Source: an uncultured Christensenellaceae bacterium
Lineage (GTDB): Bacteria > Bacillota > Clostridia > Christensenellales > CALWSW01
Assembly: GCA_944384305.1 (NCBI GenBank)
Contig: CALWSW010000001.1
Span: forward strand, 1-48,344
Length of the DNA: 48,344 nucleotides
Direction: 5' to 3'
Below the pieces are notes generated by a model. The model was not told the DNA's origin. It did not search any database and saw only the letters and a program-made list of their open reading frames with translations. Position 1 is the first letter of the stretch. Each line of letters opens with the position of its first letter. Positions 4,377 to 10,108 of the stretch are shown one piece after another. Made by a program: the position numbers and the translations under genes.

Positions 4377-5017
4377 CGCAGCACCTCGCAGTCTGAAACA
4401 TTCAGCACGCCCTGTTCGAGCCGGGCACGAAAGTAGGTCGGTTCGATGCTGGCGGGGTCAGAATAGTCAAAGTCGTAGAGCGTGAGGCCGAGGTCGCGGG
4501 TCGCGGGGATGGCGGGAATGGGGCCGCCCGGCCAGCGGCGGAAATTTGCCGGGAATTCCCGGCAGCCGCAATAAGGCGTGTGGAAGCACTGGCCGCGTTC
4601 CATCCGGCGGGTGACGATGTCCTGAAATTTGCCGGGATTGTCGCTGGGGGCGGCGCGTTCTGTCATGTCGAAGTGCGCTTCGATCACGTAGTGCACATCC
4701 TGCAGCACCAGGGAAGCCCGCTGGACGATGTCCTGCGAAGCGGCGATGCAGAGCGGCTGGGTGCCGCCCCGCATGGCGCTGCGGGCGGCGGAACACAGCA
4801 GTTTGCTTTTGACCTCGTTGCGCCGGACGCTGGTGAAGCGGATGGGGGAGAGCACATAGATGCGGTCGATCACCCACTTGAGCCCAGGGTGAAAATAGAC
4901 GGCTTCCACAATGCCGCGCGCCGCCGAAGGGGTGGGGACATCGTAACTCATGCGCTCAACCTTGAGTTCCGGTCTGGAGAACAGCGCGTAATCCCCCCAG
5001 ACCTCCAATTGGATCAT
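4373..5017 (-). CDS. cas5: Cas5 (Cas5d, type I-C pre-crRNA endoribonuclease/Cascade subunit)
   Basis: MIQLEVWGDYALFSRPELKVERMSYDVPTPSAARGI... is the Cas5d signature. The ORF-track GTG (5026) abuts the GGAGG (5030..5026), whereas ATG 5017 is 8 nt downstream of it, so I call 5017 as the start. Confidence 0.9.
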   Translation of the reverse strand: MIQLEVWGDYALFSRPELKVERMSYDVPTPSAARGIVEAVYFHPGLKWVIDRIYVLSPIRFTSVRRNEVKSKLLCSAARSAMRGGTQPLCIAASQDIVQRASLVLQDVHYVIEAHFDMTERAAPSDNPGKFQDIVTRRMERGQCFHTPYCGCREFPANFRRWPGGPIPAIPATRDLGLTLYDFDYSDPASIEPTYFRARLEQGVLNVSDCEVLR

Positions 5018-5129
5018 GGAATACACCTCCTTTGTGATCTTTGCTTGTTGATCATTATGGTTGGTTTTTTTTACCGTTCGCTTGGTCGCCCCTTTTTGGT
5101 GCTCCCGGCCTGCAAACGGTGCAGGGTAT

Positions 5130-5146
5130 CTTTTCTTTCAGAAAAG
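5130..5146. promoter_or_regulatory. Perfect 7-3-7 inverted repeat CTTTTCT-TTC-AGAAAAG in the cas3-cas5 intergenic region (candidate operator)
   Basis: Read directly from the sequence. It lies about 110 nt upstream of the cas5 start, inside a 255-bp AT-rich gap in an otherwise overlapping operon. Confidence 0.3.
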
Positions 5147-5272
5147 TTCTGCGAATCTGGTAATTAAATTGTCGGATTCGATCGCACAAATTCCGAAGTT
5201 GCCGTTGTTCTGAAAACTGCGATTTCGTGTGTTTGTTTTGCAAGGAACCCCTTTGCGTTCCCTGCGGTTTCC

Positions 5273-7450
5273 TTAAGAAAACAGTCCGACCCCTCCTTCC
5301 ACCTCCAGCTGCAGCCCGGTGTCGGGGTCGTAGCAATCGGTGCGGGTCAAAACATAACAGCCGCTGTCCAACCGTTCGACAGCTCCCGCGGCCTCGAGCG
5401 CTTCCAGGTGCTGGGGGTAGACGCTGACGGCGTACTGCCCCAATTTGCGGTACAGGCCCTTTTCGTGCAGGCCGGCGCGCAGCTGGTTTACCAGCCCGGC
5501 TCCTTCGCCGATGGGCAGGTAGATGGCAGTGGTGGGGGAGTCGATCAGCCGGAAGGAATCCGCCACATGGGCAAAGGGAAAGACGCTGCCGCAGTGCCCC
5601 TCTTCAATGCTCTTTAAAATCTGCTGGCGGTCGAGTTCATTGCGCCCTTTCAGCTTTAAAAAGTAGTCAAAGTAAGTGTCGGCGGCGCTGGGCGAAGCCA
5701 GGTCGCTGTGTTTCTTTTCTGCGGCGTGCAGGGCAGCGATGTTTGTGCGAAGCAAAGAAAGCGGTTCGGCCCCTTCTAGGCGAAAGATTTTTACAAGGCT
5801 CTGTTCGGGCGGGCGGCGGCCTTCGCGGTTGCAGCGCCCGGCGGCCTGCAGAATGGAATCCAACCCGGCCTCTTCCCGCCAGGCTGCGGGAAAGTCCAGA
5901 TCGACGCCCGCTTCGATGAGCGAGGTGGAAACCACCCGGCAGGAGAGCCCCTGTGCCAGACGGGTGCGGATCTCGGCGATCTTCTGTTTGCGGCTGGCGG
6001 GGCAGAGCAGGGTGGTCAGGCAGAAGCTGCCTTCGCGCGGGAGACTTTGGTAAAGCGCCTGCGCGGTCTTCCGGCGGTTGACCACGCACAGCACCTGCCT
6101 AGCGGCGCCTAGCTCGTTTGCCAGTGCTTCTTCGTTTAGGGTGCCGGCGTTTTGAAAGGTCGCGCGGCGGAAAAAGCCGGAAAGCGCCTGGCGGTCGGGG
6201 CAGATCTCCTGCGCCGTGAGCCCGCCGGATTCTTGAAACAGAGGAGCGAGCTTGGGCTGCGTAGCCGTACACAGCACGGCGGTGACGCCGTAGTGCTGCA
6301 CGAGTTCTGCAATGGCGGCCACGCAGGGGCGCAGGTAGGGTACGGGCAGGGTCTGGGCCTCGTCAAAAATGACGACGCTTTGCGCGATGTTGTGCAGCTT
6401 GCGGCAGCGGGAAGAGCGGTTGGCGTAGAGCGATTCAAAGAACTGCACCGCCGTGGTCACCACCACGGGGACGTCCCAGTTTTCGGTGGCGAGCACCTTG
6501 CGGTAAACGGAAAGGCTGCTGCCGTTTGCCGCGTCGGTTTGCATGAGGTACTCTGCGCCGCTGTGGTGCTCCAACACGTTTTCTGCCCCCAGGATCTCCT
6601 GGAACTTGCCGGCGGTCTGGTCGATGATAGAGGTGTAGGGAATGACGTAAATGACCCGCTGCATCTGGAGCTTTACAGCCATGGAGAACGCAAAGGCCAG
6701 AGAGGCCACGGTCTTGCCGCCGCCCGTGGGCACGGTAAGGGTGTAAAGCCCCTGGGGGAAGGAAGCGCCCTTTGCAAAGCAGGCCTTTAAAATTTCGCTG
6801 CGCTTTTGGTTGAGGGGCGTTGTGGCGTTCCACCAGCCCTGTGCTTCGATGTAGCGCTCTAAAAGAGCCAGCAGCTCGGGCAGGGAAGCGTGGCCGCCCC
6901 GCGGGGCGGCAGAACCGCGCATGAAGGTCTCGGTATCCTGGTAGTCGGCGTCCACCAGGCAGGAATAGAGCATGCGGGTGTAAAAGAACTGGGCAAAGGG
7001 GCTGGAATGGCGCAAAAAATCCGGGTGGCGCACGGGGCCCTGGGGCAAACGGATCTCGCTTTGCCAGGCGCTGCAGTCGGGCAGGGCGCGCTTGAGGCGG
7101 CCGAACAGCGTGGCCTGCCCGGCAGTATCGGTGCGGCTGCCGCCGTCGGGAATGCCGCCGTGATGGCCGGCGATGGCGAAGGCGGCGGAGGTCTGCCTGA
7201 GTTTTTGGGAAACCTGAGCGCCGGCGGTGGAATGGTCGACCACCCTGCCGCCGTGCAGGCGCTCCTGAAAGCCCCGGCTGTATTTGCCGATGTCGTGCAG
7301 CAGCCCCGAAAGGCGGGCGGCTTCTTCCCCGCCGAAGGGGCGGGCGAACTCTGCGGCGAGCGCGGCGGTGTTTTCCAGGTGTTCCCGCACGGTTTGTGTG
7401 CGGGTGTGGTCTTCTGAAATGTGGGCGAGATAGGGGGGATTTGGATTCAT
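5273..7450 (-). CDS. cas3: Cas3 helicase-nuclease (HD domain + DEAD/DEAH-box helicase)
   Basis: 725 aa. The N-terminal HD motif is LSGLLHDIGKYS, with helicase Walker A TVPTGGGKT and a DEAQ box (VVIFDEAQ). AAGGAG lies 6 nt upstream of ATG 7450. Confidence 0.95.
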   Translation of the reverse strand: MNPNPPYLAHISEDHTRTQTVREHLENTAALAAEFARPFGGEEAARLSGLLHDIGKYSRGFQERLHGGRVVDHSTAGAQVSQKLRQTSAAFAIAGHHGGIPDGGSRTDTAGQATLFGRLKRALPDCSAWQSEIRLPQGPVRHPDFLRHSSPFAQFFYTRMLYSCLVDADYQDTETFMRGSAAPRGGHASLPELLALLERYIEAQGWWNATTPLNQKRSEILKACFAKGASFPQGLYTLTVPTGGGKTVASLAFAFSMAVKLQMQRVIYVIPYTSIIDQTAGKFQEILGAENVLEHHSGAEYLMQTDAANGSSLSVYRKVLATENWDVPVVVTTAVQFFESLYANRSSRCRKLHNIAQSVVIFDEAQTLPVPYLRPCVAAIAELVQHYGVTAVLCTATQPKLAPLFQESGGLTAQEICPDRQALSGFFRRATFQNAGTLNEEALANELGAARQVLCVVNRRKTAQALYQSLPREGSFCLTTLLCPASRKQKIAEIRTRLAQGLSCRVVSTSLIEAGVDLDFPAAWREEAGLDSILQAAGRCNREGRRPPEQSLVKIFRLEGAEPLSLLRTNIAALHAAEKKHSDLASPSAADTYFDYFLKLKGRNELDRQQILKSIEEGHCGSVFPFAHVADSFRLIDSPTTAIYLPIGEGAGLVNQLRAGLHEKGLYRKLGQYAVSVYPQHLEALEAAGAVERLDSGCYVLTRTDCYDPDTGLQLEVEGGVGLFS

Positions 7451-7544
7451 GGCAGGCTCCTTTGCCGGACGATGGGTAGAAAGGGGAGGCTAAGAAAAGC
7501 ATAGCAGACGGCCTGTACCATAGAAAGGCCATCTTAAAATGAGT

Positions 7545-7579
7545 GAACGAAAAATGCCGCCCGGAGGTTTTTGGGCGGC
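7545..7579 (-). terminator. Rho-independent terminator (minus strand) just upstream of the cas3 promoter region
   Basis: On the minus strand: GCCGCCC-aaaaacctcc-GGGCGGC (7-bp GC stem, 10-nt loop) followed by ATTTTTCGTT. Confidence 0.6.
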
Positions 7580-7617
7580 ACAAGGGCGGCGCAGGTGAGG
7601 CAGACGCCCCAGGGGTG

Positions 7618-7649
7618 ATTTCGATCCACGCCGCTTCCAGGGCCTGTTG
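7618..7649 (-). repeat. Orphan, half-degenerate type I-C CRISPR repeat (3' 13 nt intact)
   Basis: The minus strand reads CAACAGGCCCTGGAAGCGGCGTGGATCGAAAT. The last 13 nt (CGTGGATCGAAAT) are identical to repeat R2 of the mini-array; the 5' hairpin half is unrelated. Confidence 0.45.
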
Positions 7650-7877
7650 TGCAGACCGCTGGCCCGCCCGAGCTCTGGGAGCGGCGGCAGTGATGACCCG
7701 GGAGAGCCCGGTATGGTTCGGGTTTTGGCTTGTGCCCTTGGTTCGGACGGCGGCAGGGGAATGATCCCCTCCCGCGTTTTGGGCAGGTTTCGACCAGCGT
7801 TTGAGAGACCGCGGCAAACATGGACGGGCTCTTACCAAACGGCGCTTGAAGGCGTGCCCGGGCTTGTTCACCTCGGC

Positions 7878-7976
7878 ATTTCGATCCACGTCCTCGCGAG
7901 AAGGATGACATAGCGCTAAGCTGTGGGACTTCTTCGTATTCGACATTTCAATCCACATCCCCGCGAGGAGGATGAC
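7878..7976 (-). CRISPR. Type I-C mini-array: 2 repeats (32 nt) + 1 spacer (35 nt), transcribed like the cas genes
   Basis: R1 (7976..7945) is GTCATCCTCCTCGCGGGGATGTGGATTGAAAT and R2 (7909..7878) is GTCATCCTTCTCGCGAGGACGTGGATCGAAAT, 28/32 identical. The spacer (7944..7910) is GTCGAATACGAAGAAGTCCCACAGCTTAGCGCTAT. The 3' end GTGGATTGAAAT, a 7-bp hairpin and an 11-nt tail form the canonical I-C repeat architecture. An AT-rich leader-like stretch occupies 7977-8010. Confidence 0.75.
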
Positions 7977-8039
7977 TATAATTTGAAAAAATTCTCTGCT
8001 TTCTTCATATGGTTGGGGCTTGCGCCGGGCTGAAGGGGA

Positions 8040-8060
8040 AGGGGTGATTCGAACATCGGC
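8040..8060 (-). repeat. Repeat-derived fragment duplicating the 7611-7630 junction (AGGGGTGATT(T)CGA)
   Basis: Plus strand 8040-8049 AGGGGTGATT is identical to 7611-7620. The following cgaacatcgg resembles tcgatccacg with a 1-nt deletion. Confidence 0.25.
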
Positions 8061-8104
8061 GCGTTCGCTCTCTTTTGCAGGGGCATTGGCTGAAACAGCC
8101 GGGT

Positions 8105-8356
8105 TCAAATATTGTGAAGCCGCGTGAGCAAAGCGATGAGCTGGAACTTGTCGGCCATGAGCTGGCGGAAGGCCACGGTTTTTTGCTTGCCCTGTGCGCG
8201 CAGGGCGGCCATTTTTTGCTCGATGTTTTCCTGTTCAGAAAGCAGGGAATCGTACAGGTCTTCGAGTTTTCCCAGCTTTTCCAGGGCGGCGGATAGCTGC
8301 TGCCCTTCCTTTAACTGGTAGCCGTTTGGCGTAAACTGCGTCAGGCGTTCTTCCAT
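8105..8356 (-). CDS. Hypothetical small protein (83 aa, helical/coiled-coil-like)
   Basis: The internal ATG 8356 has AAAGGAG 6 nt upstream, and the longer ORF-track N-terminus has no RBS. Product MEERLTQFTPNGYQLKEGQQLSAALEKLGKLEDLYDSLLSEQENIEQKMAALRAQGK...; no family recognised. Confidence 0.55.
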   Translation of the reverse strand: MEERLTQFTPNGYQLKEGQQLSAALEKLGKLEDLYDSLLSEQENIEQKMAALRAQGKQKTVAFRQLMADKFQLIALLTRLHNI

Positions 8357-8440
8357 GAAGGCTCCTTTCTTGGCCGGGAAGCGGAGGTTTGGCAAGGCCG
8401 GTACAGTAGGCGAAGGGGGGGAAAGACTGGGCAAAAGAAC

Positions 8441-8492
8441 AAAGCGCAAAACCGCTGCCCGGGTAAATGCGTTCCCCTGGGCAGCGGTTTTT
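8441..8492 (-). terminator. Rho-independent terminator ending the mdh...frdA-like operon
   Basis: On the minus strand: CCGCTGCCCAGGgg...ccCGGGCAGCGG followed by TTTTGCGCTTTGTTCTTTTG, 12 nt after the stop at 8504. Confidence 0.65.
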
Positions 8493-8503
8493 CAATAAAA
8501 AGG

Positions 8504-10108
8504 TCAGAGTTCGTTGGTTTTTCGGGTGTAGTCGGGCAGCAGCAGGGGGGAGACCGCGCCGGTCTCGACGCCCGCTTCCTTGAGGGACTGCTCAAAAGCC
8601 TCTACGTGCGCAAGGCTCAACCGGCCCGGCGCCGTGTTTTTTGCGGCGCGCGCGGCGCTCTTGCCCGCCGTGCGGCCAAAGACGATGATGTCGAGCAGGG
8701 AATTGCCCATGAGGCGGTTGCGGCCGTGGATGCCGCCCACCGCTTCGCCCGCCACAAACAGGTTTTCCACTCCGCTCATGCCGTCCGGGGCGATCTCGAT
8801 GCCGCCGTTTTGGTAGTGCAGCGTGGGGTAGACCAGAATGGGGGTGGTGCGCAGGTCGATGCCGTATTTGCCGAACATCCGCAGCATGCCGGGGATGCGG
8901 CGCTCGATGGTGCCCTCGCCGCCTATTTGATCGATCATGGGGGTGTCCAGCCACACGCCGTAGCCGTTGCCGGTCTCAATGCCCAGCTGCCGCTCGGTGC
9001 ACTCGCGGATGATGGCCGCGGCCGAGACGTCGCGGGTCTCCAGGGGATGCATGAAGGCTTCGCCCTCGCGGTTGACGAGCATGGCGCCCAAAGAACGCAC
9101 CTTTTCGGTGACCAGCGCGCCGAAGATCTGCGGCGGGTAGGCCGCGCCCGTGGGATGGTACTGCAGGGTGTCGGCGTACAATAGCTTTGCCCCGGCGCGG
9201 TAGGCCAGCACCAGGCCGTCGGCCGTGGCGCCGTAGTGGTTGGAGGTCGGGAACCCCTGGTAGTGCAGCCGCCCGGCGCCGCCGGTAGCAAGCACCACGG
9301 TCTTGGCGCGGGCAACGAGCAGCTCCTTGGTCTCCATGTTCAAAAGCACCGCGCCGGCCGCGCGGCCGGACTCGTCTTTTAAGATCTCGATGGCGGCGGT
9401 AAAATCCCACACGGGGATCTCGCGGTTGAAGACCTCGTCGCGCAGCACGCGCATGATCTCGGCGCCGGAGTAGTCCTTGGCGGCGTGCATCCGCTTTCTC
9501 GAAGTGCCGCCGCCGTGGGTGGTGATCATGGTGCCGTCGGGGGCTTTGTCGAACATCACGCCCAGGTCGTTGAGCCATTTGACGGCCGCAGGGCCTTCGG
9601 TCACCAGCTTTTTGAGAAGCTCCGGCCGGTTGGCATAATGCCCGCCGCCCAGGGCGTCCAGGTAGTGGATGGCGGGGGAATCGCCGGGCTTGTCGGCCGC
9701 CTGGATGCCGCCTTCGGCCATCATGGTGTGGGCGTCGCCAATGCGCAGCTTGGTGGCAATGAGCACCTTTGCGCCGGCGGCGTGCGCCTCGATGGCGGCC
9801 GAAGCGCCCGCCCCGCCCCCGCCGATGACCAGCACGTCCACGTCGCAGTCGGGGTGCGCAAGATCCAGCGCTTTTCCGGCCAGACGGCTGTGCCCCAGCA
9901 GCAGCGCGCACAGCTCTTTGGGCACTTTGTCGCCCGCGTTGGGGCCGGCGGCGAGCACGGCAAAGGCGTCCTCGCGGTAGTCGGGGTGGAACTTTTTGAG
10001 CAGGGCGTCCTTTTCTTCGGCGGTCATGCGGCGGGGTTCCTGCGCCATGCGGGCCGCGCGGGTCGCCTCGACTTTTTGGATGGATGTAAGCATCTGTTCT
10101 GTCAACAT
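8504..10108 (-). CDS. FAD flavoprotein of the succinate dehydrogenase/fumarate reductase (SdhA/FrdA) family, soluble type
   Basis: Start re-set to ATG 10108 (AAAGGGGG SD; the upstream gene stops at 10122). Motifs: DVLVIGGGGAGASAAIEA (FAD), DAHTMMAEGG, LQYHPTG, TEKVRS (catalytic Arg), ETRD, PTLHYQNGG, AGEAVGGIHGRNRLMGNSL. Confidence 0.85.
   Translation of the reverse strand: MLTEQMLTSIQKVEATRAARMAQEPRRMTAEEKDALLKKFHPDYREDAFAVLAAGPNAGDKVPKELCALLLGHSRLAGKALDLAHPDCDVDVLVIGGGGAGASAAIEAHAAGAKVLIATKLRIGDAHTMMAEGGIQAADKPGDSPAIHYLDALGGGHYANRPELLKKLVTEGPAAVKWLNDLGVMFDKAPDGTMITTHGGGTSRKRMHAAKDYSGAEIMRVLRDEVFNREIPVWDFTAAIEILKDESGRAAGAVLLNMETKELLVARAKTVVLATGGAGRLHYQGFPTSNHYGATADGLVLAYRAGAKLLYADTLQYHPTGAAYPPQIFGALVTEKVRSLGAMLVNREGEAFMHPLETRDVSAAAIIRECTERQLGIETGNGYGVWLDTPMIDQIGGEGTIERRIPGMLRMFGKYGIDLRTTPILVYPTLHYQNGGIEIAPDGMSGVENLFVAGEAVGGIHGRNRLMGNSLLDIIVFGRTAGKSAARAAKNTAPGRLSLAHVEAFEQSLKEAGVETGAVSPLLLPDYTRKTNEL

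Follow-up and report, generated by a model that had tools for sequence, protein, structure and literature searches.

A truncated CRISPR repeat before a terminator upstream of a Christensenellaceae cas3 gene is probably leftover array DNA

Between a small CRISPR array and the type I-C cas3 gene of an uncultured Christensenellaceae bacterium lies a unit with the outline of a CRISPR RNA (crRNA), in which the 3' part of a repeat (the stub) is followed by a segment of spacer length (the guide, if it is one) and a hairpin with a U-tract. The question raised by this locus is whether the unit encodes a second guide RNA or is what remains of an array that once extended here. A sequence-only reading had put forward a degenerate guide RNA (psi-crRNA) as its headline and a decayed terminal repeat followed by its terminator as its fallback. 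The region was analyzed within the window (the whole stretch of DNA studied, 48,344 nt), in the assembled genome, and in related strains. The features on which the argument turns are as follows.

8356-8105, minus strand: small open reading frame (ORF) upstream of the leader of the array CRISPR2
7976-7878, minus strand: CRISPR2, with repeat R1 (7976-7945), one 35-nt spacer and the degenerate terminal repeat R2 (7909-7878)
7877-7631, minus strand: trailer, 247 nt from R2 to the half-repeat, with no recognizable repeats, ORF or RNA family
7686-7629, minus strand: predicted long hairpin (an inverted repeat) whose 3' base, G7629, adjoins the handle; candidate substitute for the repeat stem-loop
7630-7618, minus strand: half-repeat CGTGGATCGAAAT, equal in all 13 nt to the 3' end of R2 (7890-7878)
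7628-7618, minus strand: equivalent of the type I-C 5' handle, the last 11 nt of the stub, UGGAUCGAAAU
7617-7580, minus strand: spacer-like 38 nt, CACCCCTGGGGCGTCTGCCTCACCTGCGCCGCCCTTGT, 36 nt of which precede the folded stem
7581-7550, minus strand: intrinsic terminator with a 9-bp stem (7581-7573 with 7562-7554), a 10-nt loop and a U5 tract (7554-7550)
7526-7498, minus strand: putative cas3 promoter, TTTCTA-17 nt-TGcTATGCT (extended -10 at 7506-7498), read from the sequence
7450-5273, minus strand: cas3 (Pfam), first gene of the type I-C operon

The order of the operon is cas3-cas5c-cas8c-cas7-cas4-cas1 on the minus strand (Pfam), with cas2 past the end of the contig; cas2 and the main CRISPR array were seen on contigs of other strains. 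A second, distant Cas3-like gene, with 34% identity to the Cas3 of the window and one in-frame TGA, was present on another contig of the assembly (G000 contig C96:2677-4509) and may belong to a second or decaying CRISPR-Cas system.

The anatomy given in the sequence-only reading held up. Only the 3' 13 nt of the repeat survive, identical to R2, at 7630 to 7618 on the minus strand; the 38 nt, the GCCGCCC/GGGCGGC hairpin and the U-tract all follow on this strand, with the stem refined to 9 bp, and the unit ends about 95 nt upstream of the cas3 start codon (ATG at 7450). Its crRNA-like geometry is real, with 36 nt from handle to stem, inside the range of 35 to 38 nt in genuine CRISPR2 units (spacers of 33 to 36 nt plus GU). 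The stub agreed with the repeats of the two arrays (CRISPR2 and the main array) at 12 of 13 positions, and its handle matched the canonical handle UGGAUUGAAAU at 10 of 11 positions. Over the other 19 nt of a complete repeat, the match fell to the random level (3/19), which identifies a genuine half-repeat with a sharp junction, not a full repeat. The exact 13-mer had two copies in the 2.07-Mb assembly, the stub and R2, and none of 20,000 shuffled versions of the 333-nt trailer contained it; the resemblance to the repeat is thus not due to chance. With one mismatch, it occurred in the assembly only within an orphan CRISPR array (G000 contig C113, ~1840-2040). This orphan array has three type I-C spacers, a degenerate terminal repeat and, in front, tandem copies of a ~47-nt GC-rich unit, with no cas genes or recognizable leader.

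The stub and R2 have the old variants C(-13) and C(-6) in common, and the GCG at -14 to -12 of the stub is that of the main-array repeat. These common variants are consistent with an old repeat copy. The 13 perfect bases stand beside unrelated DNA, 260 nt past the equivalent bases of R2, and this sharp edge suggests a rearrangement junction, not gradual decay. A perfect 13-mer combined with an unrecognizable remainder of the repeat, and with any intermediate repeats also unrecognizable, is not simple neutral decay and needs truncation or rearrangement. In a search of the 247-nt trailer for intermediate decayed repeats, the best ungapped match (16/32; null P = 0.36) was the stub itself, and the weak motifs GTCATC (7697) and CTGGTCGAAAC (7797) were not significant. 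Other identities for the trailer were also considered. Positions 7000-8600 had no match to Rfam families, a mobile element was rejected for lack of further copies in the genome, and a coding function was ruled out by a 1-nt indel between strains, the overlapping ORFs being without a Pfam match.

The status of CRISPR2 itself was settled by strain comparison. Metagenome contigs with members of the Cas3 cluster (at least 90% identity) were taken as the strain set, and alignment of their upstream regions yielded five haplotypes, all of one species (identity of ~97% or higher, except in a few patches). Most haplotypes have the same one-spacer CRISPR2 as the window. On the long-read contig L043, the site upstream of cas3 carries seven canonical repeats (GTCATCCTCCTCGCGAGGATGTGGATTGAAAT) and six spacers that the window lacks; beyond them come the oldest spacer and the degenerate R2, both shared with the window. 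The leader end of this array, GCAGAGAATTTTTTCAAACTGCA, equals that of the main array, which lies downstream of cas2 on contigs with the Cas1 of the window and has the repeat GTCGCTCCCCTCACGGGGAGCGTGGATTGAAAT. Given this multi-spacer array and the matching leader end, R1 and R2 mark the trailer end of a second, genuine array that is transcribed toward cas3, and the stub sits in its trailer, in array orientation. A normal array that simply ends here in a related genome had been named in the sequence-only reading as evidence against a guide RNA; a normal array does exist in L043, but its last repeat is R2, which lies 247 nt before the stub. Compared with CRISPR2 of the window (7976-7878), that of L043 (L043:3078-3573) has ~150 nt more leader, including an AT-rich TATAAT segment. 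The window haplotype is without this segment, and its one-spacer array may therefore be poorly transcribed. Downstream on L043, cas3 is split in three or four ORFs (L043:4001-6179) and cas8c has a 173-nt gap, and cas3 is truncated in L083; these disruptions reflect either long-read or assembly error or decay of cas3 in some strains.

The hairpin that closes the unit has the properties of an intrinsic terminator. RNAfold gave it -17.9 kcal/mol (z = -2.2 to -2.3) and added U-A and G.U pairs to the GCCGCCC/GGGCGGC stem. A consensus terminator scan missed it because the loop limit of the scan is 8 nt and this loop has 10. Four haplotype versions of the stem, of 9, 12, 10 and 10 bp, ranged from -17.9 to -21.4 kcal/mol (z = -2.2 to -3.7), and every haplotype has AUUUUU after the hairpin. 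The haplotype substitutions all keep or lengthen the stem; in L040-42, one arm change results in a G.U pair and two loop changes give two extra pairs. This upkeep has the look of a selected terminator; divergence among the haplotypes is too low for hairpin covariation to be informative. Also in L040-42, both copies of GCCGCCC, located 13 nt apart at the 3' end of the guide and in the 5' arm of the terminator (window 7587 and 7575), read GCCGTCC, a concerted change for which gene conversion and alternative pairing with GGGCGGC are possibilities. Derivation of the terminator from a mutated repeat stem-loop was rejected, as it aligned with five I-C repeats no better than shuffles did (P = 0.29-1.0). 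The ~95 nt between the terminator and the cas3 ATG hold the putative promoter and a ribosome-binding site. This promoter was not called by a consensus scan, and its TGn-TATGCT motif is retained in all haplotypes. Placed past the array trailer and ~25 nt before the putative cas3 -35 element, the terminator would insulate the cas3 promoter from array transcription.

A different pattern was found in the stub and the 38 nt that follow it. The 38-mer diverged from the window by 2.6% in L040-42 (a change at guide position 31) and by 10.5% in L043, and the cas3 coding sequence by 0.8 to 2.3%. In L043, guide positions 9 to 14, adjacent to the seed, read TGCGGGCGC, and in the window TGGGGCGTC. The first base of the handle, T7628, is C in L083 and L084 (2/5 haplotypes). 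Substitutions in stub and guide were at or above the flanking rate, and in this small sample (5 haplotypes, one species) both evolve without detectable constraint. Further upstream in the trailer, a patch of ~30 nt (window 7745-7715, minus strand) has a dozen or more differences between haplotype groups (GGGCACAAGCCAAAACCCGAACC versus GAATGCGAATGGAAAATCAAACG); given its near-identical flanks, it looks like a mosaic or recombination patch.

Beyond the species, the 654-nt region upstream of cas3 had no DNA match in 7 other genomes of the family, and a survey of the DNA upstream of cas3 in 27 genomes from the order (Cas3 identity, 43 to 59%) gave no repeat-like array motif. Contigs of the group with 58 to 62% Cas3 identity had no array or convincing repeat stub at this place, and the trailer had no homology to the cas3-upstream regions of these distant relatives. 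The CRISPR2 repeat was absent from GTDB representative genomes, and the 24 matches of the junction 18-mer in JGI metagenomes were all discarded as chance, with unrelated flanks. Conservation as a block, which had been proposed as a check on a guide RNA, therefore extended to every strain contig found, all of one species, but to none of the more distant relatives checked, and the lack of a match in the latter makes the block lineage-specific and young. One distant contig (L029 of G134), whose cas3 product is 59% identical, has a lone handle-like GCCGGATTGAAAC 320 nt upstream of cas3; this motif had no TTC-flanked target within 1.5 kb, the best candidate having a TTG flank and 8/10 seed matches.

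We consider it likely that the stub unit is a truncated old repeat plus the spacer or trailer sequence following it, in front of the intrinsic terminator of the array, and that it is nonfunctional leftover array DNA. CRISPR2 lies upstream of cas3 and is read in the direction of the cas genes; its trailer would hold an old repeat of which the 3' 13 to 14 nt are left, with the breakpoint joined to unrelated DNA. The sequence after the stub would probably be the last spacer or trailer sequence, and the Rho-independent terminator would then stop array transcripts short of the cas3 promoter. Arrest of array transcription at the hairpin and an origin of the stub by truncation are both inferred. Like degenerate terminal repeats followed by a terminator in array trailers, the stub occupies the trailer end, oriented like the array, has the old variants of R2, has kept a hairpin and U-tract, and corresponds in position to a full array in a sister strain. 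Unlike them, it is 247 nt past the terminal repeat, not adjacent to it, and it is cleanly cut (13 perfect bases), not uniformly degenerate. The fallback of the sequence-only reading thus fits as to the array at the same site in L043 and the maintained hairpin, but not as to gradual decay, the stub having the look of a truncation at a junction.

The strongest alternative to leftover array DNA is that the stub is a solitary-repeat-unit (SRU) gene for a crRNA-like regulatory RNA (crlRNA) of the CreR type, in which Cas5c would cut after the upstream hairpin to leave the 11-nt handle, Cascade would hold the ~36-nt guide, the terminator hairpin would form the 3' end, and a promoter would be repressed by partial pairing. 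We regard this as unlikely. Published type I-C SRU crlRNAs combine an 11-nt handle with a non-repeat hairpin at the 3' end and repress the defense genes Nezha, Gabija and "CRISIS" (bioRxiv 10.1101/2024.12.27.630466). Cleavage of their precursor immediately 3' of a hairpin gives the handle, the 3' end lies in a noncanonical hairpin, and the RNAs are 48 to 50 nt long (bioRxiv 10.1101/2024.12.27.630466). The published SRUs sit between inserted defense genes and cas5c, with an 11- to 16-nt promoter match flanked by TTC or TTA and normally in the same locus; the psi-spacer of the Nezha SRU has a 16-bp match to a promoter of its locus with a TTC protospacer-adjacent motif (PAM), and in the CRISIS units the match is partial, next to a TTC or TTA PAM (bioRxiv 10.1101/2024.12.27.630466). 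In the related CreR/CreA systems, degenerate mini-CRISPRs autorepress cas promoters, and CreR consists of two psi-repeats and a psi-spacer that matches a PAM-flanked site at the cas promoter (bioRxiv 10.1101/2023.03.10.532045).

The stub unit resembles the type I-C SRUs in having a repeat-like element with an 11-nt handle (10/11 canonical), a spacer-length segment whose 36 nt fall within the genuine range, and a non-repeat 3' hairpin. It differs from them in having no PAM-flanked target in the locus or the assembly and no canonical repeat stem-loop (3/19 matches 5' of the handle), and in the length of the RNA, which would be ~55 to 60 nt to the hairpin loop compared with the published 48 to 50 nt. 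The resemblance to CreR/CreA lies in a degenerate repeat that best keeps the 5'-handle nucleotides and stands beside a cas promoter; unlike there, a single stub is present, and neither the cas3 nor the cas5 promoter region has a match. In the 246-nt gap between cas3 and cas5 (window 5027-5272), no handle-like motif was found within 2 mismatches; the usual location of published type I-C SRUs thus lacks one here.

In favor of processing, the predicted hairpin at 7686-7629 ends exactly at the Cas5c cleavage position (G7629), and it is the centroid of the local fold. Against this, its stability was no better than that of shuffles (z = -1.1), it was not formed in the 181-nt minimum free energy fold, in which handle-guide pairing replaced it, and L043 and L083 have lost one of its base pairs. 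Recognition by Cas5c of B. halodurans centers on U22-G23-G24, just past the cut (PMC8524198). The U-to-C change at handle base 1 in L083 and L084 affects the U22 equivalent and thus falls in the trinucleotide most important to this enzyme, which counts against a guide, as does the altered guide at positions 9 to 14 in L043. A consensus scan found no sigma-70-like promoter in front of the stub unit, and an RNA from it could thus come only by read-through from the array.

Targets of the 38-mer were sought in the assembly (80% complete, 186 contigs) and at the locus, and neither gave a seed match next to TTC or TTA. None of 67,006 TTC sites flanked a seed match, and the TTC-flanked partial matches that the sequence-only reading had proposed to look for were accordingly lacking from this assembly; at these sites the seed matched at no more than 9 of 10 positions, in an alignment with 18/38 identities in all, and no run from position 1 exceeded 9. 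Irrespective of flank, the longest runs in the assembly were 13 nt, with flanks TGG and TCC that are not PAMs, and the top matches inspected lay inside long ORFs of GC-rich sequence and were not promoter-like. In the cas locus (window 4900-8600), no seed match with a TTC or TTA PAM was found, and handle-like motifs in the first 8.6 kb were limited to R1, R2 and the stub. The sole similarity of the 38-mer to the cas3 and cas5 promoter regions was a PAM-distal, out-of-register 10-mer (GGGCGTCTGC versus GGCCGTCTGC). A copy of AATCACCCCT in the leader (8049-8040) was rejected as a target: it has a 7-nt seed only, its flank AAT is not a PAM, it is missing from L043, and 10-mer repeats are anyway expected within 900 nt. 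An origin of the 38-mer as an old phage spacer was likewise set aside, exact 18-mer matches being absent or non-extending and BLAST matches at chance level. For comparison, no IMG/VR protospacers were found for the L043 spacers or the window spacer S1.

In two defining tests, those of a target and of guide conservation, the outcome is therefore negative for a crlRNA. The psi-crRNA headline of the sequence-only reading found no support: there is no PAM-flanked target, the guide varies at or above the flanking rate, and two strains have a mutation at base 1 of the handle. With 20% of the genome unassembled, some room is left for a live single-repeat crlRNA gene, with read-through from the CRISPR2 leader, the long hairpin for Cas5c cleavage, the terminator as 3' handle, and a target in the missing part or on a mobile element; this combination appears quite improbable.

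A further alternative to leftover array DNA is a cis-acting sensor, in which Cascade subunits assembling on the nascent handle and guide would alter the adjacent terminator and read-through from the array into cas3 would track Cascade and crRNA levels. The placement of a handle, a Cascade-length segment and a terminator directly before the cas3 promoter would suit such a sensor in its geometry alone, as would the alternative pairings of the handle with the 3' part of the guide or with the U-tract. However, the last Cas7 on a genuine crRNA adjoins an intact 3' hairpin, from which melting of the terminator would not be expected; handle and guide are not conserved between strains; and cas3 is apparently served by a separate promoter past the terminator. 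We know of no precedent for a terminator sensor controlled by Cascade, and we judge this explanation very unlikely. Chance resemblance, a random 13-mer beside an unrelated terminator, has nothing but the GC-rich background in its favor and is refuted by the shuffles, by the restriction of the 13-mer to stub and R2 in the whole assembly, and by its position in a genuine trailer, oriented like the array.

As it stands, the unit carries little weight for crlRNA biology: a crRNA-shaped layout beside a cas promoter is insufficient to call a regulatory crlRNA, for which a PAM-flanked target and guide conservation are decisive, and the stub unit has neither. On the favored reading, the stub is an ordinary array remnant. 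If a Cascade-dependent RNA did start at 7628, it would be a type I-C crlRNA in which a terminator serves as 3' handle and processing relies on a non-repeat hairpin, and would represent a modest extension of the published class.
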